Shown here: piece after piece, positions 1,893 through 64,000 of the stretch | How positions within the stretch are numbered: position 1 is the stretch's first letter | How the letters are laid out: the number at the start of each line of letters is the position of its first letter | NCBI GenBank assembly: GCA_963802965.1 | Contig: CAWDKS010000003.1 | Location: forward strand, 202,819 to 266,818 | Direction of reading: 5' to 3' | DNA: 64,000 nucleotides | Source of the DNA: an uncultured Verrucomicrobiae bacterium | Lineage (GTDB): Bacteria > Verrucomicrobiota > Verrucomicrobiia > Limisphaerales > UBA11358 | Made by a program: the position numbers and the translations under genes | The notes under the pieces: model-generated | Database searches by the model: none | The model's input: the letters and a program-made list of their open reading frames with translations, nothing else | What the model was told of the DNA's origin: nothing

Positions 1893-3455
<1,563 letters not shown>

Positions 3456-3596
3456 ACCAAGGGTCCGCGATAAAAAGCGGACTTTGAGGTCGAACCCCGG
3501 TGCAAACCGGGGGACTAGGCTCAACACCTTATCGCACAGTTCAGTTTTCCAATGGGCAGTCATGCTCTTTGGCAAGTGGAAGAGAATCGAACTCGA

Positions 3597-3666
3597 GATT
3601 TACGATATATGATTTACGATTGGGGTGCCGGTTGGTTGGCCAATCGTAAATCCGAAATCGTAAATC
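3597..3666. repeat. inverted repeat with 7-nt-periodic arms (AATCGTA units) in the 16S-tRNA spacer
   Basis: The left arm gatttacgatatatgatttacgatt (3597-3621) is complementary to the right arm aatcgta aatccga aatcgta aatc (3642-3666). The loop is ggggtgccggttggttggcc. Confidence 0.8.
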
Positions 3667-3677
3667 AAAAATGGGCT

Positions 3678-3753
3678 GGGGCTGTAGCTCAGTTGGTAGA
3701 GCGGTAGCTTTGCAAGCTATAGGTCAGGAGTTCGAGTCTCCTCAGCTCCACCA
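3678..3753 (+). tRNA. tRNA-Ala (TGC), CCA encoded
   Basis: Hand-folded cloverleaf: acceptor GGGGCTG/CAGCTCC with G3:U70, anticodon loop TTTGCAA, T-loop GGTTCGAGTCC-like. Confidence 0.95.
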
Positions 3754-3784
3754 GCCTTCGCTCGCAGCGAAGCAAGAGCGAGGC

Positions 3785-3815
3785 TGCCGCGCCGGAGCGA
3801 AGCGAAGGCGGGCGG
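3785..3815. repeat. 31-nt motif TGCCGCGCCGGAGCGAAGCGAAGGCGGGCGG, copy 1
   Basis: Lies about 30 nt downstream of tRNA-Ala. Near-identical copies occur at 3972-4002 and 31801-31831. Confidence 0.8.
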
Positions 3816-3873
3816 TTGAGCGCACACCGAAGTTTGAGTGCTGCGAGCTACGGCTCGGCAGGCCGGAAATTCC

Positions 3874-3950
3874 GGGCGTGTAGCTCAGTTGGTTAGAGCA
3901 TGCGCTTGATAAGCGCAGGGTCACTGGTTCGAGTCCAGTCACGCCCACCA
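3874..3950 (+). tRNA. tRNA-Ile (GAT), CCA encoded
   Basis: Acceptor GGGCGTG/CACGCCC, anticodon stem TGCGC/GCGCA with loop TTGATAA, T-arm CTGGTTCGAGTCCAG. Confidence 0.95.
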
Positions 3951-3971
3951 TTTTTTCGCTCCGCGGAAAAA

Positions 3972-4002
3972 TGCCGCGCCGGAGCAGAGCGAAGGCGGGC
4001 GG
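3972..4002. repeat. 31-nt motif TGCCGCGCCGGAGCAGAGCGAAGGCGGGCGG, copy 2
   Basis: Lies about 20 nt downstream of tRNA-Ile and differs from copy 1 at two adjacent positions. Confidence 0.8.
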
Positions 4003-4175
4003 GACATGGTCTCCACTTGCAGAAACAATTTTACCGGAACGGATTGTCCGGGCTCAAAAGGCTTGGACAAAAAGGTTCGGGATGTTCTTTGACAACTACA
4101 CATAGGTAATTCTAGGGCAAATACAGTTCGTTGAGTTCCTGCAACCTCGAAGGAGGTTGTTAGGTAAACTTTTGT

Positions 4176-7076
<2,901 letters not shown>

Positions 7077-7200
7077 TTTTTCTTTGCCTGTAGCCGCGAA
7101 CTTCGGTTCGCGAACTCCAGTCAGGGATTGGCGAATTTAACTCGCGAATTGGGAATGCCCAAAGAATCCTGTGTGTAGTTTTCAGAGAACGTTGTTCTTT

Positions 7201-7290
7201 GTCAGTAGTTGGCAGTCAGTAGTCAGCAGCGTGGGAATTGGGAAAGTCTGTTCCCTGCTAAGAGCAAGGATTGCTGACTGTTAACTGAAT
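7201..7290. repeat. 7-nt-periodic repeat (GTCAGTA units) with a partial inverted partner, in the 23S-5S spacer
   Basis: gtcagta gttggca gtcagta gtcagca at 7201-7228, with the complementary ttgctgactgttaactga at about 7271-7288. The same unit family is found inside mfd at 34711-34792. Confidence 0.6.
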
Positions 7291-7294
7291 ACTT

Positions 7295-7410
7295 TTTGGT
7301 GGCCTTAAAGCTGTGGTCCGACCCGATCCCATTCCGAACTCGGCCGTCAAACACAGCGTTGCCGATGGTAGTAGTCCTATAGGTTCTGCGAGAGTAGGTA
7401 GCCGCCAGTC
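7295..7410 (+). rRNA. rrf: 5S ribosomal RNA
   Basis: Helix I TTGGTGGCC/GGTAGCCGCCAG, plus the conserved CCGAACTC...GCCGATGGTAGT...GCGAGAGTAGG. Confidence 0.93.
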
Positions 7411-8815: not shown

Positions 8816-8886
8816 GTAGCAGCCGAGGTGACGAGGCTCAAATTTTTGGTCAAATCTAGTTAGAGCCGGCTCACGCCGGCTGCTAC
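8816..8886. repeat. palindromic element, TGTAG family (intergenic, rmuC-ridA)
   Basis: The arms are GTAGCAGCCGAGGTGACGAGGCTC (8816-8839) and GAGCCGGCTCACGCCGGCTGCTAC (8863-8886). Both are 24 nt and the pairing is imperfect. Confidence 0.75.
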
Positions 8887-9310: not shown

Positions 9311-10231
9311 TCAAAGATATTTTGCCAGAATGGGTTTCAGCTCGGTAACAGTTTTCTTCGGCCAGAACTTTTTGTCGGTCAGGATGGCGTTCTTGAGCGC
9401 GGAATGACATGGCCAGTCCGGTTCGGCGGGAATTTCGGCGATGGCGGCGGTGACGATTTTTTTCGCCGTGTCGGCGTTGCGATGCAGGTTGCCGATGATC
9501 ATTGCCAGCGTGACGTGTTCGTCCTCCTTCCAGCAATCGTAGTCGGTGGACATCGCGAGCGTGGCGTAGGCGATTTCCGCTTCGCGGGCGCATTTGGCCT
9601 CGCCGAGGTTCGTCATGCCGATGACGTCATATCCGGCGCGGTGGTTGGTGAGCGATTCGGCGCGGGTGCTGAACGCCGGGCCTTCCATGTTCACATAGGT
9701 GCCGCCATCGTGAATCGTCACACTTCGGAGGGACGAGCTACGCGAGTCCCTGTTTGAAATCTTGGGAATTGGGGACTCGTGTAACTCGTCCCTCCCAACT
9801 TTTAATAAAATTTGCCGCAGTTCCTCGCAAATTGGATGCGCAAACGCGACGTGCGCCACGATGCCGCGGCCAAAAAAGGTGTGGGCCAGCGATTGTTTGG
9901 TGCGGTCCACAAACTGGTCAACGAGCACGATGTCGCAGGGCTTGCATTTTTCCTGCAACGACCCGACGGCGCTGACGCTGATGATCCAGGCGACGCCGAG
10001 TTTTTTCATCGCCCAGATATTGGCCCGATGGTTGAGTTCGCTGGGCAGGATGCGGTGGCCCCGGCCATGCCGCGGCAGAAAGACAATGTCGCGCCCGGCC
10101 AATTTGCCGGTGAGCAAATCATCCGATGGCGGACCAAAGGGCGTCCTGACCTTCACCCATTTTTGCCCCGTGAAGCCTTCGATGTTGTAGAGGCCGGTGC
10201 CGCCGATGATGCCGATGCGATAATCAGACAT
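9311..10231 (-). CDS. mtnP: S-methyl-5'-thioadenosine phosphorylase
   Basis: IGIIGGTGLY, FLPRHGRGH and GMTNLGEAKCAREAEIAYATLAMSTDYDCW. The protein carries a 23-codon repeat-derived insertion (see repeat 9727..9795). Confidence 0.88.
   Translation of the reverse strand: MSDYRIGIIGGTGLYNIEGFTGQKWVKVRTPFGPPSDDLLTGKLAGRDIVFLPRHGRGHRILPSELNHRANIWAMKKLGVAWIISVSAVGSLQEKCKPCDIVLVDQFVDRTKQSLAHTFFGRGIVAHVAFAHPICEELRQILLKVGRDELHESPIPKISNRDSRSSSLRSVTIHDGGTYVNMEGPAFSTRAESLTNHRAGYDVIGMTNLGEAKCAREAEIAYATLAMSTDYDCWKEDEHVTLAMIIGNLHRNADTAKKIVTAAIAEIPAEPDWPCHSALKNAILTDKKFWPKKTVTELKPILAKYL
9727..9795. repeat. palindromic element (GGAGGGACGAG...CTCGTCCCTCC) in frame inside mtnP
   Basis: 24-nt arms GGAGGGACGAGCTACGCGAGTCCC (9727-9750) and GGGACTCGTGTAACTCGTCCCTCC (9772-9795) with 2 transition mismatches. 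The total is 69 nt, or 23 codons. Confidence 0.8.
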
Positions 10232-18860: not shown

Positions 18861-18941
18861 GATGAACGCGGATGAACACGGATTTGTAGTCGAGGTGACG
18901 GGACTCAAATCAAACTGGAGACTTCCTGCATCGTTTCCTGC
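18861..18941. repeat. tandem GATGAAC[GA]CG units followed by a degenerate TGTAG-family element
   Basis: gatgaacgcg gatgaacacg gat (18861-18883), then GTAGTCGAGGTGACGGGACTC (18886-18906) with a poorly matching right arm. Confidence 0.5.
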
Positions 18942-31498: not shown

Positions 31499-35128
<3,630 letters not shown>

Positions 35129-37339: not shown

Positions 37340-37348
37340 ATTCCCTTT

Positions 37349-37408
37349 GTAGGAGACGAGGTAACGAGGCTCAATTTTTGATCAGAGACTCCTCACGTCG
37401 TCTCCTAC
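37349..37408. repeat. palindromic element, TGTAG family, between convergent trpS and kpsF
   Basis: The arms are GTAGGAGACGAGGTAACGAGGCTC (37349-37372) and GAGACTCCTCACGTCGTCTCCTAC (37385-37408). The kpsF stop codon (37405-37407) lies in the right arm. Confidence 0.85.
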
Positions 37409-38376
37409 ATTATTTTCAGCTTCGGCAAATCCTGCGAATCCACCAGGCCGACCGGCTCGCGCTTCGCGTTCACGACGATCAAATCGTCAATGTTCCGCTC
37501 GTTGAAAATTTTCAAGGCTTCAACCGCCAAAGCCTCGTGACCAATGCAAATCGGATGGCGCGTCATCACCTTTTTCAACGGCCGGGCCAGCAGATTTTCG
37601 TCCGTGGCCATGCACCGGCGGAAATCGCCGTCGGTGAAAACGCCCACGAGTTTGCCGCGCGCATTGACGACGCTCAGGCTGCCGGACCTGGCCTGCGTCA
37701 TCACCAGCAACGCCTCCCTGACCGGCAGGTTTTCGCCCGCAACCGCGTTGCGTTCGCCGGCGCGCATGATGTCGCCCACGCGCAACAGCATCGCGCGGCC
37801 AATCGCGCCGGAGGGATGAAATCGCGCGTAATCCTTCTGCTTGAATCCGCGCGCCTGCAACACCGCCATCGCCAGCGCGTCGCCCATCACGAGCATGGCC
37901 GTCGTGCTGCTCGTCGGCGCGAGATTGAACGGACAGGCTTCCTTCGGAACTTTGACGTTCAGGGAAACGTCGCTGTGTTTGGCGAGCGATGATTTCAAAT
38001 TGCCGGTGAGTGAAATGATTTTGACGGAAAATCTCTTGAGCGCGGGCAGCAGGTTGAGCAATTCCTCCGACTCGCCGGAGTAGCTCAACGCCAGGACCAC
38101 ATCGCCGTCGGCGATGATGCCGAGGTCGCCGTGCAAGGCGTCCACGCTGTTGAGCACGACGCTGGGCGCGCCGGTGCTCGTCAAGGTCGCGGAAATTTTC
38201 TGTCCGACGTTTCCCGATTTGCCGATGCCGACCACGACGATTTTCCCGCGTTGCCGCAGCGCCTCCACCATCAGCTCAACCGAGAGGTCAAAGGTTTTGC
38301 CCAACTGCGCGCGCACGGCCTTCAACGCGGCGAGTTCGATGTCGAACACTTTGCGGGCTTGGTCAAGATGGCTCAC
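37405..38376 (-). CDS. kpsF: arabinose-5-phosphate isomerase (KpsF/GutQ family)
   Basis: SIS domain VVVGIGKSGNVGQKISATLTSTG plus two C-terminal CBS domains. The start codon is GTG. Confidence 0.9.
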   Translation of the reverse strand: MSHLDQARKVFDIELAALKAVRAQLGKTFDLSVELMVEALRQRGKIVVVGIGKSGNVGQKISATLTSTGAPSVVLNSVDALHGDLGIIADGDVVLALSYSGESEELLNLLPALKRFSVKIISLTGNLKSSLAKHSDVSLNVKVPKEACPFNLAPTSSTTAMLVMGDALAMAVLQARGFKQKDYARFHPSGAIGRAMLLRVGDIMRAGERNAVAGENLPVREALLVMTQARSGSLSVVNARGKLVGVFTDGDFRRCMATDENLLARPLKKVMTRHPICIGHEALAVEALKIFNERNIDDLIVVNAKREPVGLVDSQDLPKLKIM

Positions 38377-53717: not shown

Positions 53718-54065
53718 ATGCACGAAGTTCATCTGGTCCGCGCCATTCTGGAAACCGTTGAAAAAAAGGCTGTTGCGCAAAAGGCCAAACGCGTGAAATC
53801 GGTCAAAATCCGGTTTAATTCCCTGACCAGCCACAGCGGCGACCACATGCAGTTCAGTTTTGACATCGTCAAAAAGGAAATCCCGTTTCTCCAGGACGCC
53901 ACGCTTCAGCTCACCGAGGTCGAGCCGACACTGCTGTGCAACCAATGCGGCCACAAATTTCACGGGCATCACCTCCCCGACGTCTGTCCCAAGTGCGCGT
54001 CGGTGGATGTCAAGGCCGTGAATTCCACGGACATGGTGCTCGAAAGTTTTGAGATTGAGCGCTGA
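53718..54065 (+). CDS. hypA: hydrogenase nickel-insertion protein HypA
   Basis: MHEVHLVRAIL N-terminus (Ni site) and the zinc motif CNQCGH...CPKCAS. Confidence 0.88.
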   Translation: MHEVHLVRAILETVEKKAVAQKAKRVKSVKIRFNSLTSHSGDHMQFSFDIVKKEIPFLQDATLQLTEVEPTLLCNQCGHKFHGHHLPDVCPKCASVDVKAVNSTDMVLESFEIER

Positions 54066-54074
54066 AAGGATTGT

Positions 54075-56531
54075 GTGAACGCGCCGCCAGCAACGCGATT
54101 GAAGATCGCCGTGCGCGGCGCGGTGCAGGGCGTCGGGTTTCGCCCGTTCGTTTTCCGCCTCGCCACCGGACTCGGCCTGGCCGGCTGGGTCAACAATTCC
54201 CCGCGGGGCGTCTTCATTGAAGTTGAAGGCCCGCGCGCGTCGCTCGAAAAATTCCTGCTCCGCCTCGAAGCGGAAAAGCCGCCGCGCAGCTTCATTCAAA
54301 GCCTCGAAACGTTGTGGCTCGATCCGGCCGGTCAGACCGGTTTTGAAATCCGCGCGAGTGAAACCGGCGGCGGCAAAACCGCGCTCGTCTTGCCGGACAT
54401 CGCCACCTGTCCCGATTGTCTGCGCGAAATTTTTGATCCCAAGAACCGGCGGCACCGCTATCCATTCACGAATTGCACGAATTGCGGGCCGCGCTTCAGC
54501 ATCATCGAATCCCTGCCTTACGACCGCGCGAACACCTCGATGAAATCGTTCACGATGTGCCCGCAATGCCGGGCCGAATACGACGACCCACTAGACCGCC
54601 GTTTCCACGCGCAGCCCAACGCCTGCCCGGTCTGCGGACCGCGCCTGACGCTTTGGGAGTGCGGCGACATGTCGCCGCTTTCAAAGCGCGGACATGTCCG
54701 CGCACTCCAAAATAACAATGCCTTGCTCGCTGCCGCTGAATCCATCCGCTGCGGTAAAATCGTCGCCGTCAAGGGACTGAGCGGATTTCATCTGATGGCG
54801 GATGCGCGCAACGACAAGGCCGTCCGGCTCCTGCGAAAACGAAAACATCGCGAGGAAAAGCCATTCGCCCTGATGTTTCCATCACTCGAAAGCGTGAAAG
54901 CCGAATGCGAAGTCTCCCCACTCGAAGAACGATTACTCCGCTCATCGGAGGCACCCATCGTTCTTTTGGAAAAAATCGTAAATCGCAAATCGCAAATCGT
55001 AAATGCCGTGGCTCCCGGCAATCCCAATCTCGGCGCGATGTTGCCGTCGAACCCGCTGCATCATCTGCTCATGGCCGAACTGGGCTTTCCGGTCGTCGCC
55101 ACCAGCGGCAACCTGGGCGACGAACCGGTTTGCACGGATGAACATGAGGCGCGGGAACGTCTCGGCCGCATCGCCGATGTGTTTCTGGTTCATAACCGCC
55201 CCATCGTCCGTCACGTGGACGATTCGATTGTGCGCGTCATGCTGGACCGTGAACTGGTGCTGCGCCGCGCCCGCGGCTACGCGCCGCTGCCCATTCAACT
55301 CGTAGGAGCCGACGTGAGGAGGCTCAACCTTCAAGAACAAAATGAGTCAGAGCCTCCTCACGTCGGCTCCTACAAAACAATTCTGGCCGTTGGTGCGCAC
55401 CTGAAAAACACCGTCGCGCTCGCCGTCGGCAATCAGGTTTTCCTCAGCCAGCACATCGGCGATTTGGAGACGGAACCGGCGCATGCCGCCTTCCGCCGTG
55501 TCATTGCTGATTTCCAGAAACTTTACGACACCCGGCCGCAAATCATCGCCGCCGATTTGCACCCGGATTATCTCTCGACCAGATTTGCGCGTGAATTCGG
55601 CGATGCGCCGTTGGAGTTCACGCTTCAGCGTGTTCCGAAAGCGCAGACGACAGGCAAGCTAAAGCTTGAACTCCAACACGTTGGCGTCCAGCACCACGTC
55701 GCCCATGTCCTGTCCTGCATGGCGGAGAATGAAATCGCGCCGCCCGCGCTCGGCGTTTCGTGGGACGGCACGGGTTACGGGCTTGACGGCACAATCTGGG
55801 GCGGTGAATTTTTCCTCGTCACCAACGAAACCGTCGAACGGGTCGCGCATCTGCGCCCGTTCCGGTTGCCCGGCGGCGACAAGGCGGTCAAGGAACCGCG
55901 CCGCACCGCGCTCGGATTGCTATACGAAATTTCCGGCGACAAGGTTTTCAAACGGAAAAAACTGGCAACGATTGCCGCTTTTTCGGCGGCGGAAATGGTC
56001 ACGCTGAAAACGATGCTGGCCAAAAAATTGAATTCGCCGCTTTGTTCCAGCGCGGGCCGGTTGTTCGACGCCGTCGCCTCGCTCGTCAATCTCCGCCAGC
56101 ACATCCGGTTTGAAGGCCAGGCCGCGATGGACCTGGAATTTGCGCTGGATGGCGTGGACACAGACGAGACTTATCCCTTGTCACTCGTCACTCGTCACCC
56201 GTCACTGGTCCTGGATTGGTCGCCGATGATTGAGGCGATTTTATCGGACGTGCAAAATGGCGTTCCCGGTGGCAGGATTTCCGCGAAGTTTCACAACGCG
56301 CTGGCCCAGGCCGTGGTGGCCGTGGCAAAAAAAATCGGCGAACGGCGCGTGGTGTTGAGCGGTGGCTGTTTTCAAAACCGTTATCTGACGGAGCGAACGG
56401 TGCGGCGGTTGCAGGCGGAAGGGTTCCGCCCGTATTGGCACCAGCGCGTGCCGCCCAACGACGGGGGAATCGCGCTGGGTCAGGTCCTGGCGGCGTTTCG
56501 AGAACGGCAGATCGTAAATCGTAAATCATAA
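54075..56531 (+). CDS. hypF: carbamoyltransferase HypF
   Basis: GTG start. Acylphosphatase domain (VRGAVQGVGFRPFV), two zinc fingers (CPDCLREI...CTNCGPRFSI, CPQCRAEY...CPVCGP), YrdC-like (VAVKGLSGFHLMADA) and Kae1-like (VQHHVAHV) domains. Contains six repeat-derived segments. Confidence 0.92.
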   Translation: MNAPPATRLKIAVRGAVQGVGFRPFVFRLATGLGLAGWVNNSPRGVFIEVEGPRASLEKFLLRLEAEKPPRSFIQSLETLWLDPAGQTGFEIRASETGGGKTALVLPDIATCPDCLREIFDPKNRRHRYPFTNCTNCGPRFSIIESLPYDRANTSMKSFTMCPQCRAEYDDPLDRRFHAQPNACPVCGPRLTLWECGDMSPLSKRGHVRALQNNNALLAAAESIRCGKIVAVKGLSGFHLMADARNDKAVRLLRKRKHREEKPFALMFPSLESVKAECEVSPLEERLLRSSEAPIVLLEKIVNRKSQIVNAVAPGNPNLGAMLPSNPLHHLLMAELGFPVVATSGNLGDEPVCTDEHEARERLGRIADVFLVHNRPIVRHVDDSIVRVMLDRELVLRRARGYAPLPIQLVGADVRRLNLQEQNESEPPHVGSYKTILAVGAHLKNTVALAVGNQVFLSQHIGDLETEPAHAAFRRVIADFQKLYDTRPQIIAADLHPDYLSTRFAREFGDAPLEFTLQRVPKAQTTGKLKLELQHVGVQHHVAHVLSCMAENEIAPPALGVSWDGTGYGLDGTIWGGEFFLVTNETVERVAHLRPFRLPGGDKAVKEPRRTALGLLYEISGDKVFKRKKLATIAAFSAAEMVTLKTMLAKKLNSPLCSSAGRLFDAVASLVNLRQHIRFEGQAAMDLEFALDGVDTDETYPLSLVTRHPSLVLDWSPMIEAILSDVQNGVPGGRISAKFHNALAQAVVAVAKKIGERRVVLSGGCFQNRYLTERTVRRLQAEGFRPYWHQRVPPNDGGIALGQVLAAFRERQIVNRKS
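54652..54712. repeat. nested palindromic element inside hypF
   Basis: Outer arms TTTGGGAGTGCG and CGCACTCCAAAA enclose the palindromes GGCGACATGTCGCC and GCGCGGACATGTCCGCGC. It is translated as WECGDMSPLSKRGHVRALQN. Confidence 0.8.
54974..55001. repeat. tandem heptamers AATCGTA AATCGCA AATCGCA AATCGTA inside hypF
   Basis: Four 7-nt units followed by aatgcc, translated as IVNRKSQIVN. The unit family is the same as at 3642-3666 and 56510-56537. Confidence 0.85.
55302..55373. repeat. perfect 24-bp-armed palindromic element, TGTAG family, in frame inside hypF
   Basis: GTAGGAGCCGACGTGAGGAGGCTC (55302-55325), a 24-nt loop, then GAGCCTCCTCACGTCGGCTCCTAC (55350-55373). The total is 72 nt, or 24 codons (VGADVRRLNLQEQNESEPPHVGSY). 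Confidence 0.92.
55611..55676. repeat. palindromic element, TTGGAGTTCA family, in frame inside hypF
   Basis: The arms are TTGGAGTTCACGCTT (55611-55625) and AAGCTTGAACTCCAA (55662-55676), with 1 mismatch. The total is 66 nt, or 22 codons (LEFTLQRVPKAQTTGKLKLELQ). Confidence 0.88.
56181..56208. repeat. tandem heptamers TCACTCG TCACTCG TCACCCG TCACTGG inside hypF
   Basis: Four 7-nt units, translated as SLVTRHPSLV. Confidence 0.8.
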
Positions 56532-56537
56532 ATCGAA
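56510..56537. repeat. tandem heptamers GATCGTA AATCGTA AATCATA AATCGAA spanning the hypF stop
   Basis: These supply the last residues (QIVNRKS) and the TAA stop (56529-56531) of hypF. The element ends 6 nt before the hypC ATG. Confidence 0.85.
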
Positions 56538-56543
56538 AATTCC

Positions 56544-56798
56544 ATGTGTCTGGCCATTCCAGGAAAGATTGAAAGCATCAGCGGCGATGACCCGCTGTCG
56601 CGCACGGGCAAAATAAATTTCGGCGGCGTCCTTAAGGAAGCCTGCCTTGCCTATGTGCCCGAGGCCAGGGTCGGCGATTACGTCATCGTCCACGTCGGCT
56701 TCGCCCTCAGCCGGCTCGACGAAGACGAGGCACACAAGATTTTTGAGTATCTGAAACAAATGGAGGAGCTTGGCGAGTTGAAGGGAGGCGGGCCATGA
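56544..56798 (+). CDS. hypC: hydrogenase assembly chaperone HypC
   Basis: [13 protein letters not shown]-terminus with the essential Cys2; 84 aa. Confidence 0.9.
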
Positions 56799-56812
56799 AA
56801 GCCGCGCCAGTA

Positions 56813-56894
56813 GTGGCACGGGCGTCCCGCCCGTCCGTTTCAAAAGCAGTCCGTTTTTCAGACCAGAAACTCACAGGCGAGAAGCCTGTGCCAC
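56813..56894. repeat. palindromic element filling the hypC-hypD gap
   Basis: Outer arms GTGGCACGGGC (56813-56823) and GCCTGTGCCAC (56884-56894), with an inner hairpin ACGGGC-gtccc-GCCCGT. The element ends 1 nt before the hypD ATG. Confidence 0.65.
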
Positions 56895-56895
56895 A

Positions 56896-57984
56896 ATGAA
56901 ATACCTCGACGAATATCGCGACGGTGGGCGCGCGCGGCAACTGGCGCAGGAAATCCACCGCCGCACGACCCGGCCGTGGAACATCATGGAAGTCTGCGGC
57001 GGCCAGACGCACGCCATCGTGAAGTTCGGCATTGACGAACTGTTGCCCAAACAAATCACACTCATTCACGGGCCGGGTTGTCCCGTCTGCGTGACGCCGC
57101 TGGAAATGATAGACAAGGCGCTCGAAATTGCCGCGCGGCCCGGCGTCATTTTCGCCTCGTTCGGCGACATGCTGCGTGTGCCCGGCAGCGCGACCGACCT
57201 GCTTTCAGTCAAGGCCCGGGGCGGCGACGTGCGCATCGTTTATTCACCGCTCGACGCGGTGAAATTCGCGGAACAAAACCCGGCCAAAGAAGTTGTGTTC
57301 TTCGGCGTCGGTTTTGAAACCACCGCGCCGGCGACGGCCATGGCGGTGTATCAGGCGGCGCAAAAGGGGCTGAAGAATTTTTCGATGCTCGTCTCGCACG
57401 TGCTCGTGCCGCCGGCGATGGAGGCGTTGATGTCGTCGACGAACTGCAAGGTGCAGGGTTTTCTCGCCGCCGGGCACGTCTGCACGGTGATGGGTTACGA
57501 GGAATACCCGCCCATCGCGGCGAAATATCGCGTGCCGATTGTCGTGACCGGTTTTGAGCCGCTGGACATTTTGCAGGGTGTGCTGATGGTGGTGCAGCAG
57601 CTCGAATCCGGCCGGGCCGAGGTCGAAAACCAATACACCCGCTCGGTGCGCCGCGAAGGCAACCAGCCGGCGCAGGAACTCATCCGCAAAATTTTCAAGG
57701 TCGTCCCGCGCAAATGGCGTGGCGTCGGCGAAATTCCGCGGAGCGGTCTGGGATTGAACGACGCCTACGCCGCGTTCGACGCCGAAAAGAAATTCGGTCT
57801 GGTCGAGCACCACGTGGCGGAACCGGCCGAATGCCTCAGCGGGCTGGTCTTGCAGGGACAAATCAAACCGCAGGAATGCCCGGCGTTTGGCACGAAATGC
57901 ACGCCGGAACATCCGCTCGGCGCGACGATGGTGTCATCGGAGGGCGCATGCGCGGCCTACTATCGATACCGGCGGCGCAATTGA
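56896..57984 (+). CDS. hypD: hydrogenase formation protein HypD
   Basis: [34 protein letters not shown] and C-terminal Cys motifs. Confidence 0.92.
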
Positions 57985-58005
57985 ACCAGCCATGAAGAAA
58001 CACTC

Positions 58006-58100
58006 AACAACCAACATCCAACACCGAACATCCAATTTTTCCCGGAAAGGCAGACGCAGATCCTTCGATGTTGGGCGTTGGATGTTCGATGTTCGATGTT
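58006..58100. repeat. inverted repeat with AACATCC/AACATCG heptamer arms between hypD and hypE
   Basis: aacaacc aacatcc aacaccg aacatcc (58006-58033) is complementary to tcgatgttgggcgttggatgttcgatgttcgatgtt (58065-58100). Confidence 0.85.
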
Positions 58101-58117
58101 TTCAATTCTGATTTTTT

Positions 58118-59161
58118 ATGGACTTTAACTCCACCTGCCCGATTCCCATTCAGCAGTATCCGCATGTCCTGCTGGCGCATGGCGGCGGCGGCAAGCTGAT
58201 GCACCAGCTCATCGGCAACATGTTCCTGGCGGCGTTTGGCAATCCGCCGCTTGAAACGCAGCACGATTCGGCGGTGGTTGAATGGACCGGCAAAAAACTC
58301 GCGTTCACGACCGATTCCTACGTCGTGCGGCCGTTGTTTTTCCCCGGCGGCGACATCGGTTCAATGGCCGTTCACGGCACGGTGAACGACCTCGCCATGA
58401 GCGGCGCGCGGCCGCTTTATCTCAGCAGCGCATTCATCATCGAGGAAGGATTGCCGATGGACACGCTCTGGCGCGTCGTCTGCTCGGTGCGCGACGCGGC
58501 GCAACGGTGCGGCGTGCAAATCATCACCGGCGACACCAAGGTCGTGGACAAGGGCAAGGGCGACGGCCTGTTCATCAACACCGCCGGCATTGGCGTCATC
58601 GAACACGACCAAAAAATCGTGCCGCAAAACGTGCAGCCCGGCGACGCCGTGCTGGTGAGCGGCGATTTGGGCCGGCACGGCATGGCCATCATGGCCGTGC
58701 GCGAAGGACTGCAATTCGAGAGCACCATCGAAAGCGATTCCGCGCCCGTCCACGAAATGGTTTTGGAGCTGCTCAAGGCTGGGATTGAAATTCATTGTCT
58801 GCGCGACCTGACCCGCGGCGGACTGGCGGGCGCGCTCAACGAGATTGCCGAGGGGGCAGGGGTGCGCATCGAAATCGTGGAAAAAACCGTGCCGGTGCGC
58901 GAAGACGTTCACGCCGCCTGCGAAATGCTCGGGCTTGACCCGTTGCACGTTGCGTGCGAAGGGCGCATCGCCGCGTTCATCGCGGCCAGGGACGCGGAGC
59001 GCGCGTTGCAAATCATGAGCCGCCACGCCGTTGGAGCGGGGTCGGCGGTCATCGGCAGGGTGGCGGAAAGCTCCGCGCCGCTGGTCACGTTGAAAAGCGC
59101 GATTGGCGCAAACCGGATACTCGACATGCCCGGCGGCGAGCAGTTGCCGAGGATTTGTTGA
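58118..59161 (+). CDS. hypE: hydrogenase maturation carbamoyl dehydratase HypE
   Basis: AIR-synthase-like fold ([23 protein letters not shown]) and the C-terminal GEQLPRIC motif. Confidence 0.92.
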
Positions 59162-59169
59162 GGGCGCGG

Positions 59170-59934
59170 TTACGCCAGCGCGAGCGAGTGCGTGCGCTCG
59201 TAGATTTCTTCGGGCGAACCTTCGGCCTTGATCGAAACCAGCAATCCGCATTTCCGGTAGAAATCGGTCAGCGGCCGGGTGCTTTTTTCATAAGCCTCCA
59301 TCCGCACGCGGACGGATTCGGGCCGGTCATCCTCGCGCTGAATCAGTTCTCCGCCGCAATGGTCGCAAATGCCCTGCACCCGCGGCGGCATGTTCGTCAC
59401 GTGGAAAACCGCTTTGCACTTGGAACACGTGCGGCGGCCCGACAGCCGGGCGACCACCTGGTCGAGGGGCAATTCGTAACTGAACACGGCGGTCAACGGC
59501 ACGTTTTCCTTTTCCAACAGGTCCGCCAACGCCTCGGCCTGGGCGACGGTGCGCGGAAAGCCGTCCAGCAGGAAACCGCCGCAACAGCGCAGGCAGCGGG
59601 TGCGTTCGGCCACAATCGCCAGCACGGTTTCGTCAGGCACCAAATCACCGCGAATCATGTAATGCAGCGCGGCCTCCAGGGCGGGGGAACGGTCGCCCTC
59701 CGAAAGACACTTGGCCGCGCGGAAAATATCGCCGGTGGACAACTGGCAGGCGCCCAGCCGCTCGGACAGCAACTCCGCCTGCGTGCCCTTGCCGACGCCC
59801 GGCGCGCCCAGCAAGACCAGCCGCCAAATCCGCCCCGCCGGTTTGGGCTGCGGATTCGAGCAAAACACGTCGCCGCCCTTGAGCCATGCCGCCCGGTCGG
59901 GCTTATGTGTTACATCAGGTTCCTTTGTTTTCAT
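59170..59934 (-). CDS. adk: adenylate kinase (Cys4 zinc-lid type)
   Basis: P-loop LLGAPGVGKGTQ and lid CSKC...CDHCGG. The start is uncertain (ATG 59934 leaves about 35 extra N-terminal residues); the ORF track extends to 59985. Confidence 0.85.
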   Translation of the reverse strand: MKTKEPDVTHKPDRAAWLKGGDVFCSNPQPKPAGRIWRLVLLGAPGVGKGTQAELLSERLGACQLSTGDIFRAAKCLSEGDRSPALEAALHYMIRGDLVPDETVLAIVAERTRCLRCCGGFLLDGFPRTVAQAEALADLLEKENVPLTAVFSYELPLDQVVARLSGRRTCSKCKAVFHVTNMPPRVQGICDHCGGELIQREDDRPESVRVRMEAYEKSTRPLTDFYRKCGLLVSIKAEGSPEEIYERTHSLALA

Positions 59935-60139
59935 ATGAATTAATTTAAGCCAAACCTGTGCGTTTCTCCATGCGGGATGCGCCAATTGACAAGAAATGTT
60001 TCTTCATTGCCAAAATTTGGGCGGAATGTGGGCCGGCGCTCAAATCATCCCCAAACCCCGCCGCCGGGCCATGCAAGGCATGTCAAGACTTTGACAATAA
60101 CCGTGTAGTATCCCATGCGAGGCGCGATTAAGGTGCCTT

Positions 60140-61060
60140 GTGAGAATTGTGGAAGAACTCAATACCAAAGCGGCGCCCGCGAACGGGTCGGAAAAGAAAC
60201 GGCCCGCGTCCGCACCCGTGCGGGAGACGGCGTTTGACCGGCCGCGTGATTTTCTGAACAACCGCTTCGTTTATGTGGTCATCTCCCCGCGCGCCCACGG
60301 CCTGTCGCTGGGCGTGAACATGAACCTCGACCAGCACTGCGATTTCGACTGCGGGTATTGCGAGGTGGACCGCCGGACGCCGCCGCGCGAGTTGGCGCTG
60401 GACGTGGAGGCGATGGGCGAAGAACTGCGCCGGACGCTCGCGTTTGTGCATCAGGGGCGGTTGCGCGAGCGCCTTGCTTACCAGACGTTGCCGGACGAAT
60501 TGCTGCAACTGCGCCACGTGGCGTTGAGCGGCGACGGCGAGCCGACGCTGGCGCTCAATTTCACCGAAGCCGTGCAGGCGGTCGTGCGCGTCCGGGCGCT
60601 GGGCGGGAACCCATTTTTCAAGGTTGTACTGCTGACGAACGCGACCGGCCTGGATCGGCCGCAGGTGCAGGAAGGTTTGAAACACCTCACCAAATCCGAT
60701 GAAATCTGGGCGAAGCTCGACGGCGGCACGCAGGCCTTTTTGAACCGGGTGAACCGCGGCAGCGTGTCGCTGGAAAAAGTGCTGAAGAACATCCTGTCGC
60801 TGGCGCGGCAACGTCCGGTGGTCATTCAAAGCCTGTTCCCGGCCATCAATGGCGAGGAACCACCGCTGGAAGAAATCGAGCAGTATGCCCGGCGGCTGAA
60901 GGAATTGAAGGCGGACGGCGCGCAAATCTCGCTGGTGCAGATTTACTCCGCCGCGCGGCCCATGTCGCACGCCGAATGCGGGCATCTTCCATTGAAAGTG
61001 CTGTCGCATATTGCGCAAATCGTGCGCCAGACGACCGGTCTGAAAGCGGAAGTTTTTTAA
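60140..61060 (+). CDS. radical SAM protein (function unknown)
   Basis: CDFDCGYC (CX3CX2C) cluster motif, the SGDGEPTL glycine-rich SAM motif, and a GTG start. Confidence 0.7.
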   Translation: MRIVEELNTKAAPANGSEKKRPASAPVRETAFDRPRDFLNNRFVYVVISPRAHGLSLGVNMNLDQHCDFDCGYCEVDRRTPPRELALDVEAMGEELRRTLAFVHQGRLRERLAYQTLPDELLQLRHVALSGDGEPTLALNFTEAVQAVVRVRALGGNPFFKVVLLTNATGLDRPQVQEGLKHLTKSDEIWAKLDGGTQAFLNRVNRGSVSLEKVLKNILSLARQRPVVIQSLFPAINGEEPPLEEIEQYARRLKELKADGAQISLVQIYSAARPMSHAECGHLPLKVLSHIAQIVRQTTGLKAEVF

Positions 61061-61358
61061 GACCGCATCCGGGAAATCAAAACGGGAATCATCCCCTTTT
61101 TCCATCTCGTTTGCCGCGTCGAATCCCGCGATGCGGTAGAAGACGGGTCCTCGGACGTCGTCACCCGGTTTTCAACAACGCCAAACCCGAACTCGAAACA
61201 TGACAATTTCCATTTAGCACAAACGACGGCGGAAAAGTAAATCGCTGCCAGATTTCTTGATATGCGGTGGGTTCAGGGGCGAAGGACTTGCGTTGGCAGA
61301 TATGAGGGGTTCACAGAGCTCGCCCCTCCGAAATAAACCTTTTCGGGTTCCGGAATTT

Positions 61359-62363
61359 TCAGTTCAGCGACGGGACGGGATAGTTCGAGATGGCCCGCAT
61401 GTATTGCGCGCGCTCGAATTCGCCCGGCGCGGGACAGTTCTTCTGGCTCAAGCTGCCCTTGAGCTGCGAGACGGATTCGTATTCATGCTCTTCCAGCCAC
61501 GCGACGAGGTCGCGCTCAATCGTGCTGATCTGCCGGACGCCGTGCCGGATCAGTACCGAGCACAGCATCGTCACGTCCGCGCCCGCCATGAGCATCTTCA
61601 ACACATCGGACGCGCGATGGATGCCGCTGGTGGCGGCCAGATTCGCGCGGACGTGCCCGTACAGAATCGCAATCCACCGCAGCGGCACGCGCATCGCCAT
61701 CGGCGTGCTCAATAAAATGTTGGGTTTCACCTCCAGCGTCTCGAGATCAATGTCCGGCTGATAAAACCGGTTGAACAGCACCAGCCCGTTCGCGCCCGCG
61801 TCGTCGAGCCGTTTCGCCATGTTCGCGAAATTGCTGAAGAACGGGCTGAGTTTGACGGCGACGGGAATGGTCACCTCCGATTTCGCCGCCTTGAGGATGT
61901 CCAGATAGGTTTGTTCCACCGCCGTCCCCGGCAGGTTGAAATCGGTCGGGATGTAATAAATGTTCAGTTCGAGGGCGTCCGCGCCGGCCTGTTGAATGAG
62001 TTTGGCGTAGCTCGTCCAGCCGCCGGTGGAGGAGCCGTTCAGACTGGCGATGATGGGGAGGCGCACCGCTTTTTTCGCCCTGGCGATGTGCTTGAGATAT
62101 TCCTCCGGCCCGAGATGAAATTCCTGCGGCTCGGGGAAATAAGTGAGTGACTCCGCGAAACTTTCGGTTCCCTGTTCCAGATTATGCGCCAGTTCGGCGC
62201 GGTCCTGGCGCAGTTGTTCCTCGAACAGCGAGTAAAGCACCACCGCCGACGCGCCGGCGTCTTCCATGCGTTTGATGTTGTCAATTTCCTCCGACAACGG
62301 CGAGGCCGCCGCGATGAGCGGCGTCCGCAGTTTCAGGCCGAGATAGGTGGTCGTTAAATCCAT
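61359..62363 (-). CDS. dihydroorotate dehydrogenase-like TIM-barrel flavoprotein (non-canonical)
   Basis: MDLTTTYLGLKLRTPLIAAASPLS and LAATSGIHRASDVLKMLMAGADV resemble class-1 DHOD/DPD folds. Where I expect the N-x-S-C-P-N loop the sequence reads ELNIYYIPTD. Confidence 0.7.
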   Translation of the reverse strand: MDLTTTYLGLKLRTPLIAAASPLSEEIDNIKRMEDAGASAVVLYSLFEEQLRQDRAELAHNLEQGTESFAESLTYFPEPQEFHLGPEEYLKHIARAKKAVRLPIIASLNGSSTGGWTSYAKLIQQAGADALELNIYYIPTDFNLPGTAVEQTYLDILKAAKSEVTIPVAVKLSPFFSNFANMAKRLDDAGANGLVLFNRFYQPDIDLETLEVKPNILLSTPMAMRVPLRWIAILYGHVRANLAATSGIHRASDVLKMLMAGADVTMLCSVLIRHGVRQISTIERDLVAWLEEHEYESVSQLKGSLSQKNCPAPGEFERAQYMRAISNYPVPSLN

Positions 62364-62378
62364 AACATTTTTTATCTT

Positions 62379-62446
62379 GTAGGAGCCGAGGTAACGAGGC
62401 TCATAATTTGTATTTTCAATTAGAGCCTCCTCACGTCGGCTCCTAC
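62379..62446. repeat. palindromic element, TGTAG family, between the DHOD-like gene and the PFOR gene
   Basis: GTAGGAGCCGAGGTAACGAGGCTC (62379-62402) and GAGCCTCCTCACGTCGGCTCCTAC (62423-62446). The right arm is identical to the hypF copy. Confidence 0.9.
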
Positions 62447-62450
62447 AGTT

Positions 62451-64000
<1,550 letters not shown>

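Follow-up and report, generated by a model that had tools for sequence, protein, structure and literature searches.

How does a perfect palindrome come to lie in frame within the gene for the carbamoyltransferase HypF, a hydrogenase maturation protein, and to what class of genetic element does it belong? The question arises from a stretch of 64,000 nucleotides (referred to here as the window; contig CAWDKS010000003.1 of assembly GCA_963802965.1, positions 202,819 to 266,818) of an uncultured Verrucomicrobiae bacterium. Positions 55302-55373 of the window constitute a perfect inverted repeat of 72 nt, in which two 24-nt arms, GTAGGAGCCGACGTGAGGAGGCTC (55302-55325) and GAGCCTCCTCACGTCGGCTCCTAC (55350-55373), display 100% complementarity and enclose a 24-nt spacer. 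The repeat resides in hypF (54075..56531, plus strand) and reads through in frame as 24 residues, VGADVRRLNLQEQNESEPPHVGSY, that correspond to residues 410-433 of the 818-aa HypF protein. The left arm (55302..55325, plus strand) contributes the residues VGADVRRL and the spacer (55326..55349, plus strand) the residues NLQEQNES; the right arm (55350..55373) is the left-arm unit inverted onto the minus strand, and its plus strand reads EPPHVGSY. The palindrome, confirmed by the complementarity of its arms, and its 24-residue reading in an intact HypF agree with the original prediction made from this DNA, and the open frame across the element within the 818-aa open reading frame (ORF) supports the further suggestion that HypF contains its translation product. 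The same prediction had presented the repeat family as an undescribed orphan. This is not the case; it is a family of GTAG-tagged repetitive extragenic palindromic (REP) elements, and the gene for a REP-associated tyrosine transposase (RAYT) is flanked by its arms.

Matches to the arm with at most three mismatches occur six times in the 64-kb window but in none of 100 shuffles. From all DNA that we fetched, 712 arms (237 of them distinct) were collected, and these share a common design: a GTAG tag, one base, a 7-bp stem (positions 6-12/17-23 of the 24-nt arm), a GTGA, GTAA or GTCA loop, and one base. The tag is GTAG in 612 of the 712 arms and GTGG in 41. The left arm of the hypF copy is laid out in this way, with the GTAG tag, one base, a GTGA loop and a 7-bp stem that contains two central G.A mismatches; in the commonest variant of the family these central positions hold G.A and A.G, in others they form Watson-Crick pairs, and the fully paired arm variant folds as DNA at -8 kcal/mol. 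All seven stem pairs vary on both sides, with a covariation score of 0.349 as compared with 0.079 for shuffled data (0/500 shuffles reach 0.349) and at most 0.094 in controls with slid partners. Two arm variants, P (..GACGTGAGGAG..; ..GA-C-GTGA-G-GA..) and Q (..GAGGTRACGAG..; ..GA-G-GTRA-C-GA..), differ by a flipped closing base pair; the left arm in hypF is of the P type. Full elements consist of two inverted units whose tags face outward (in the hypF copy, the right-arm tag is on the minus strand), with a spacer of 12-57 nt in 199 arm pairs, and they occur as P/P' (the perfect palindromes), Q/P' and P/Q'. The 24-nt arm thus has the size of a REP (20-40 nt), forms a single-strand stem-loop and carries the GTAG tetranucleotide at the end of its hairpin. 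The element in hypF is a REPIN (REP doublet forming a hairpin), that is, two GTAG-tagged REP units inverted around a short spacer, here of 24 nt.

The spacers themselves often start with TGA or TAA and finish with TCA or TTA. At eight loci (L014, L022, L036, L040, L049, L072, L082, L123) they contain short tandem 7-8-mers (GCATTCC, GGAGTGC, GTTCCGA, ATTTCGG, AAATCAG and others), the kind of simple repeat that also stands alone in intergenic DNA and in HypF linkers.

A candidate enzyme for this family came to light between paired arms. At locus L013, a 208-aa ORF (935-1561) is flanked by a full element and by two further right arms. The best PDB match of its product is the E. coli TnpArep protein (4er8_A; E 8.5e-5), with which its HUH motif (LPDHIHLVW) and its tyrosine motif (YVLMNPVKDG) are aligned; a second such case is present among the genome loci (L076). 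The expression MPNHxH finds no RAYT in the fetched loci, the motif of this clade being LPDH[IL]HLVW. At E <= 1e-5, the L013 protein has 1362 relatives, many of them named RayT by JGI. We then used an alignment of 23 relatives as the query and retrieved 80 RAYT-homologue loci from metagenome contigs, with protein similarity as the sole criterion. In 78 of the 80 loci an arm lies within 400 nt of the RAYT homologue (74 upstream, 78 downstream), and the arms, which are missing from the gene itself (0 per kb), reach a density of 5.96 per kb up to 300 nt away and drop to 0.235 per kb beyond that distance, a 25-fold local enrichment. An HUH/tyrosine gene flanked by the matching repeat is the defining REP-RAYT arrangement, and the repeat family therefore has a cognate RAYT. 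Binding and cleavage of single-stranded REP DNA at GTAG, and mobilisation, are known only for the E. coli TnpAREP (PMC3333891, PMC3479197); by analogy with this enzyme, the element in hypF was presumably moved by a RAYT. Several RAYT ORFs (P0121-P0123, P0126, P0166, P0226) run into the flanking arm, so that their predicted products end in C-terminal tails such as QSLLTSAAT and SSRREEA.

The distribution of the family was surveyed with a 20-nt arm core as the query against GTDB, each species being represented by one genome. At least 118 stretches contain this core, and among the matches listed nearly all derive from metagenome-assembled genomes (MAGs) of Verrucomicrobiota, with Limisphaerales, Pedosphaera, subdivision 3, Verrucomicrobiales and Opitutaceae represented; a single MAG (JACRJZ01) accounts for at least nine of the loci listed. 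Together with the copies in the window, these matches bear out the claim of a dispersed, presumably mobile palindromic family, and the family is widespread in Verrucomicrobiota. A repeat that is common in the genomes of this phylum has hence acquired a name and a cognate enzyme. Arms were also found on contigs in MAGs labelled Bifidobacterium or Klebsiella (L008, L014, L049, L050, L055), which are most likely mis-binned verrucomicrobial contigs, and on six IMG/VR 'viral' contigs (L001-L006).

A sample of 87 full elements from the genome-scan loci was sorted by context. Sixty are intergenic; each of the other 27 is traversed by an uninterrupted ORF whose sequence resembles coding DNA on either flank. 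Since the filter for coding context, which relies on GC content at the three codon positions (GC1/2/3), misses the true hypF, the genic share of about 30% is approximate. All 12 of the in-frame copies that were checked with Pfam reside in real genes, with domains on either side of the element or across it. Their products are a class-III aminotransferase, a POT transporter, DnaE, UvrA, AcrB, UvrB, ArgJ, a di-haem peroxidase, a PSD/PSCyt protein, a P-type ATPase, a DEAH helicase and a dynamin-like GTPase. Several frames of the arms are used, the left arm being read as VGADVRRL or SSRREEA and the right arm as EPPHVGSY or SLLTSAAT, and the recurrence of such peptides (VGADVRRL, SSRREEA, EPPHVG[SC]Y, SLLTSAAT) in predicted proteins should aid annotation and the reading of 'hypothetical' ORFs. 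A search of 5.8 billion proteins with a 47-aa concatenated peptide returned five short ORFs only and is uninformative on in-frame copies. Genes for DNA repair and replication appear prominent among the hosts (UvrA at L018 and L086, UvrB at L009, DnaE at L118, an AddB-like protein at L103, a DEAH helicase at L097).

The host gene in the window encodes all five Pfam domains of HypF (Acylphosphatase, zf-HYPF, Sua5_yciO_yrdC, HypF_C and HypF_C_2). It is neighboured by hypA on one side and by hypC-hypD-hypE on the other, with a gene for the large subunit of a [NiFe]-hydrogenase adjoining, and judged from its sequence it looks intact and part of a working operon. Residues 410-433, the product of the element, fall between the envelopes of Sua5_yciO_yrdC (223-398) and HypF_C (434-551); the insertion site is thus the linker that joins the YrdC-like and the Kae1-like domains. 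The solved HypF structures 3vth and 4g9i show a gap opposite the element in the alignment, in line with the earlier suggestion that these 24 residues are lineage-specific. An AlphaFold model of HypF (55 close orthologues) is uninformative on the placement of the loop, its predicted local distance difference test score averaging 49.5 and staying below 50 throughout residues 326-538.

The age of the insertion was addressed with 120 verrucomicrobial HypF orthologues (P0001-P0120) that are 71-82% identical to the query. The peptide pattern of the element is present at the linker site in 17-18 of them, and the DNA of eight orthologues, drawn from independent ENA and JGI assemblies, contains a matching element at the identical codon position and always with a 24-nt spacer. 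This shared codon position indicates that the insertion is old or was made repeatedly at one spot; a recent insertion is not supported, since orthologues that are only about 77-80% identical in protein sequence have the element at the matching position. At third codon positions, pairwise identity reaches 0.90 for the arms as compared with 0.60 for the remainder of hypF and 0.54 for the spacer, and none of the 16-codon windows of hypF (n=612; maximum 0.82) attains the value of the arms. The long hairpin formed by the two arms is kept less strictly in the eight orthologues: in four, A faces C at arm position 15 (GTAA opposite CAC), one is mispaired at position 5, and in P0024, with the Q/P' form, three positions fail to pair. 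In P0015, both arms are a fully paired sub-variant, GAGTCGGCTC/GAGCCGACTC, that also occurs elsewhere (seven arms), and replacement or conversion of the whole unit is therefore more economical than four point changes. We infer that the arms are conserved because the REP unit itself is constrained, or because other copies serve as templates for its conversion, and not because of a function for HypF; we likewise read their conservation as not reflecting selection for the 24-bp RNA stem, despite the stability of that stem. No further arm copies were found in the flanks of the hypF orthologue loci when these were searched as a test of gene conversion. Arms that stay constant in coding sequence across diverged orthologues fit the notion of REPINs as long-lived residents and not short-lived parasites, and they provide a natural case in which the cause of this constancy can be studied.

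Taken together, we consider it likely that the palindrome in hypF is a RAYT-associated REPIN tolerated in the interdomain linker of HypF. According to this scenario, a RAYT, an HUH/Y1 enzyme, would recognise the GTAG tag and the small hairpin in single-stranded form, and one REPIN copy would have inserted into the stretch of hypF that encodes the linker of the YrdC-like and Kae1-like domains, so that HypF, intact in other respects, would gain 24 residues on translation. Its survival there is explained by arms in which five of the six possible frames lack stop codons (in the left arm, TAG and TGA close a single frame), by a spacer without a stop codon, and by a length of 72 nt that keeps the frame in a tolerant linker; elsewhere the left arm is frequently followed by TGA or TAA, which the spacer of the hypF copy does not have. 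Many related lineages would since have kept the copy by descent or gained it anew at that place, with arms whose nucleotide sequence hardly changed as the spacer drifted. Several points weigh against this reading. No RAYT gene was found within the 64-kb window, and the RAYT homologues are divergent, given that a Pfam scan yields no match and that their scores against the NCBIfam model NF047646 (REP-associated tyrosine transposase; E ~1e-11, 45 bits) stay below the cut-off of 80. A genic share of about 30% is unusual for elements defined as extragenic, even though the majority of sampled copies still lies outside genes. HypF proteins that have the element in common resemble one another no more (identity 0.788) than do proteins of different linker classes (0.802), so that a single insertion followed by vertical descent can be no more than a candidate history; a neighbour-joining tree of the 120 HypF sequences is star-like and does not separate one insertion from several, and recombination, repeated insertion at a hot spot or poor resolution could each unlink linker class from HypF similarity. 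Finally, translation of the peptide is predicted from the reading frame, and mobility of the element is suggested by analogy.

Among the competing explanations, selection by the host for a nucleic-acid structure deserves the most attention. Between genes, an RNA hairpin might stabilise or process the transcript; in hypF it might pause the ribosome between the two HypF domains, or the palindrome might serve as a DNA site for a host protein, roles that would be compatible with a REPIN origin. As RNA, the copy in hypF has a folding energy of -54.4 kcal/mol (z -12), synonymous sites in the arms are conserved far beyond those in the rest of hypF, and intergenic copies sit directly past stop codons, as has been reported for REPs in general (PMC3733652). 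Yet the long hairpin is only loosely kept, with mismatches in several of the eight orthologues, and what is conserved is the arm's own small hairpin and its tag; no T-run follows the hairpin, a terminator scan flags no copy in the region 54000-64000, and Rfam gives no match there. We therefore regard host selection as an unlikely primary explanation. An intrinsic terminator in particular was rejected, no T-run being present directly past the stem on the transcribed strand and none being flagged by the scan of 54000-64000, and a CRISPR was rejected because there is no array.

The reading of the original prediction, in which the palindrome is an orphan selfish element of the type of the Rickettsia palindromic elements (RPEs), spread by an unknown route or by recombination and without a dedicated enzyme, would accommodate the in-frame insertions in many unrelated proteins and the lack of a RAYT in the window. 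It is hard to reconcile with arms that carry the GTAG tag and hairpin of REPs and with their presence at 78 of 80 RAYT-homologue loci at 25-fold local enrichment; moreover, RPE-4 and RPE-6 are equated with CGTC-tagged REPs, which form a separate superfamily (PMC3733652). We judge it quite improbable. Still less credit can be given to a MITE (a miniature transposable element with inverted repeats), a class that the short, dispersed elements with terminal inverted repeats resemble, since no target-site duplication was found at the hypF copy (flanks CAACTC|...|AAAACA) or at the intergenic copies, the size of 60-98 bp is below that usual for MITEs, the arms are themselves GTAG-tagged hairpins, and the associated gene encodes a Y1/HUH enzyme and not a DDE transposase. 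That the segment was created by faulty assembly, or that a native HypF linker happens to be palindromic, is a possibility we can practically disregard: beyond the probable derivation of the window from a MAG nothing favours it, the eight independently assembled contigs with the element at the matching position rule out an artefact of assembly, and the identical 24-mer is present elsewhere in the window and in at least 118 genome stretches, for a chance expectation of 0.

Beyond hypF, the window holds further copies of the REPIN, bringing the number to four or five. The copies that had been noted at three intergenic places are borne out by arm matches; none of the three is assigned to a strand. 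The first (62378..62447) has a Q left arm, a P' right arm and a 20-nt spacer and is situated between two minus-strand genes, 3 nt past the stop codon of 62451..63800 and 14 nt ahead of the start of 61359..62363. The second (37348..37409), with a 12-nt spacer, lies where two genes converge; gene 37405..38376 on the minus strand has its TAG stop codon within the terminal GTAG tag of this element, and here, as in the tails of the RAYT proteins, REP ends have been co-opted as gene ends. The third (8816..8886), which is flanked by two minus-strand ORFs, belongs to the GCAG sub-variant, and its right arm has diverged. By sequence comparison, 18886..18941 (likewise without strand) is plausibly a degenerate copy whose left arm has lost 3 nt and whose right arm has decayed. 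Four of the window copies were inspected for flanking direct repeats, and none were found. A match to TGTAGGAG at position 4747 was rejected as a chance match inside the 23S rRNA gene; the window contains a complete rRNA operon at 1893-7410 (16S, two tRNAs, 23S, 5S).

The asymmetry of the arms that had been described for the intergenic copies is real and corresponds to variants P and Q, but it does not split genic from intergenic copies. Nor does perfect symmetry hold as a hallmark of genic copies: 5 of the 27 genic and 15 of the 60 intergenic elements are symmetric, and the hypF copy of orthologue P0024 has the asymmetric Q/P' form. Length modulo 3, counted from arm to arm in the 87 sampled elements, does not separate the two groups either.

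The REPIN is one of several repeat-derived segments in HypF. Across the 120 orthologues of the clade, HypF has about seven hypervariable sites, each of which holds one of a few recurring repeat-derived peptides in varied combinations, and the hypF gene of the window contains at least three such segments in addition to the palindrome. At 55610-55677 (HypF residues ~512-535) lies a second, unrelated in-frame palindromic element that is missing from 3vth; it consists of arms GTTGGAGTTCA and a hairpin CA[A/C/G]GC-TTNN-GC[T/G/C]TG and reads LEFTLQRVPKAQTTGKLKLELQ. Compensatory changes occur in its stem between copies, 42 matches to its arm are present in 1.26 Mb of fetched loci, and another copy (32579-32633) resides within the long ORF 31499..35128. 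Two perfect palindromes, GCGGCGACATGTCGCCGC and GCGCGGACATGTCCGCGC, lie side by side at 54662-54709 (HypF residues ~197-212) and encode GDMSPLSKRGHVRALQ, for which 3vth has no counterpart; this peptide recurs in some HypF orthologues, and others have different repeat-derived peptides in its place. Tandem 8-mers (ATCGTAAA/ATCGCAAA) are found at three places in the window: within hypF at 54975-55005, where they read IVNRKSQIVN; at the 3' end of hypF (56511-56540), where the final residues of the protein (IVNRKS), its stop codon and the spacer that leads to hypC all derive from them; and, paired in inverted orientation, at 3597-3672 in the spacer that separates the 16S and tRNA genes of the rRNA operon. 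Imperfect inverted repeats of short simple repeats (AACATCCAAC / GTTGGATGTT, AGTCCACAG, AGTCAGTAG) occupy 57998-58101, 32846-32924 and 34720-34793, one of them in the hypD-hypE spacer and the rest within ORF 31499..35128.

The linker site itself is occupied by at least four unrelated families of hairpin repeats. The alternatives to the REPIN in other lineages (loci L213, L214, L215) include an inverted repeat CGGAGGG..GCGAGCTCCGCGAGTCCC, whose family is shared with window positions 9724-9798, arrays of GCGGAAT/GCGGAGT 7-mers about a central hairpin, and two hairpins with 9-bp stems of the type CTGCCAGCG-TCC-CGCTGGCAG. One might speculate that in this clade the interdomain linkers and loops of HypF, and perhaps those of other multidomain proteins, serve as reusable landing pads for several REP-like families, the resident element being swapped or converted from one family or sub-variant to another and its arms templated, either by a RAYT or by recombination, so that linker cassettes would be combinatorial and would not follow the gene tree. 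This proposal is tentative, and we would not give it better than a small chance of being right; it is compatible with the data because there are seven variable sites and at least four families at the linker, because linker class is untied to HypF similarity, because the arms are conserved at synonymous sites, and because P0015 and P0024 switch arm sub-variants as whole units.

Among known systems, the RPEs are palindromic repeats that Ogata and co-workers are said to have described in 2000 and that reportedly lie in frame in many unrelated proteins, where they are tolerated in loops and linkers. RPE-1 is longer, at about 100-150 bp, and we know of no transposase associated with RPEs. The analogy drawn in the original prediction holds for what the element does, since insertion in frame into unrelated proteins is common to both, and this behaviour is all they have in common: the present family is a GTAG REP and RPEs are functional analogues only, with a different tag (CGTC or none) and in a different phylum, a contrast that is drawn from tag and description.

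A closer relationship connects the hypF element to the REPIN-RAYT systems of Pseudomonas fluorescens and E. coli, in which two inverted REPs surround a spacer and can fold as a long hairpin, a 5' GTAG is present, and the gene for an HUH/Y1 enzyme (structure 4ER8, PMC3479197) is flanked by the repeats (Bertels & Rainey 2011, PMC3116915; Nunvar et al. 2010, PMC2817692; Messing et al. 2012, PMC3479197). Long persistence with vertical inheritance has been claimed for REPINs. These proteobacterial systems are described as almost wholly extragenic, whereas about 30% of the sampled copies are genic and in frame here, and the RAYT is divergent from TnpAREP (E 8.5e-5 to 4ER8, no Pfam match, below the NCBIfam cut-off).

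The nearest precedent is a study by Di Nocera, De Gregorio & Rocco (2013; BMC Genomics 14:522, PMC3733652), which defined a superfamily of GTAG-tagged REPs that form homodimers and heterodimers and include RAYT genes flanked by REPs ('REPtrons'). Intragenic REPs were most numerous in a verrucomicrobium, Opitutus terrae (families GTAG-17 to -20; about 70 entries), where dimers are read in frame as 20-30 residues, such as the 24-residue VGPALAAG....PY, VGPALAAGREQRARLPAAGERPPY; the hosts comprise uvrA, DNA polymerase and helicase genes and one HypF, hosts in DNA repair and replication were remarked upon for other REP families, and insertions were suggested to be tolerable in flexible linkers. 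The claim that there is no precedent in bacteria of the Planctomycetes, Verrucomicrobia and Chlamydiae group consequently fails, since both the class of element and the phenomenon were already published. The 24-mer of the present family is absent from the text and supplements of PMC3733652, a comparison that did not extend to its consensus figure and leaves identity with a listed family possible, and from the literature to the extent that it is searchable. The HypF case of O. terrae is a single REP at residues 3-9, at the N-terminus, as opposed to a dimer in the interdomain linker here, and the stem and loop of the present family differ in sequence from the O. terrae REPs. Shared with them are the phylum, the GTAG tag with a short hairpin, the inverted dimers, the flanked RAYT, the in-frame reading as 24 residues, and hosts such as UvrA (found twice), UvrB, DnaE and helicases. 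Intragenic REPs, described in 2013 from one cultured verrucomicrobium, are hereby extended to a broad uncultured clade in which about a third of the sampled copies is genic.

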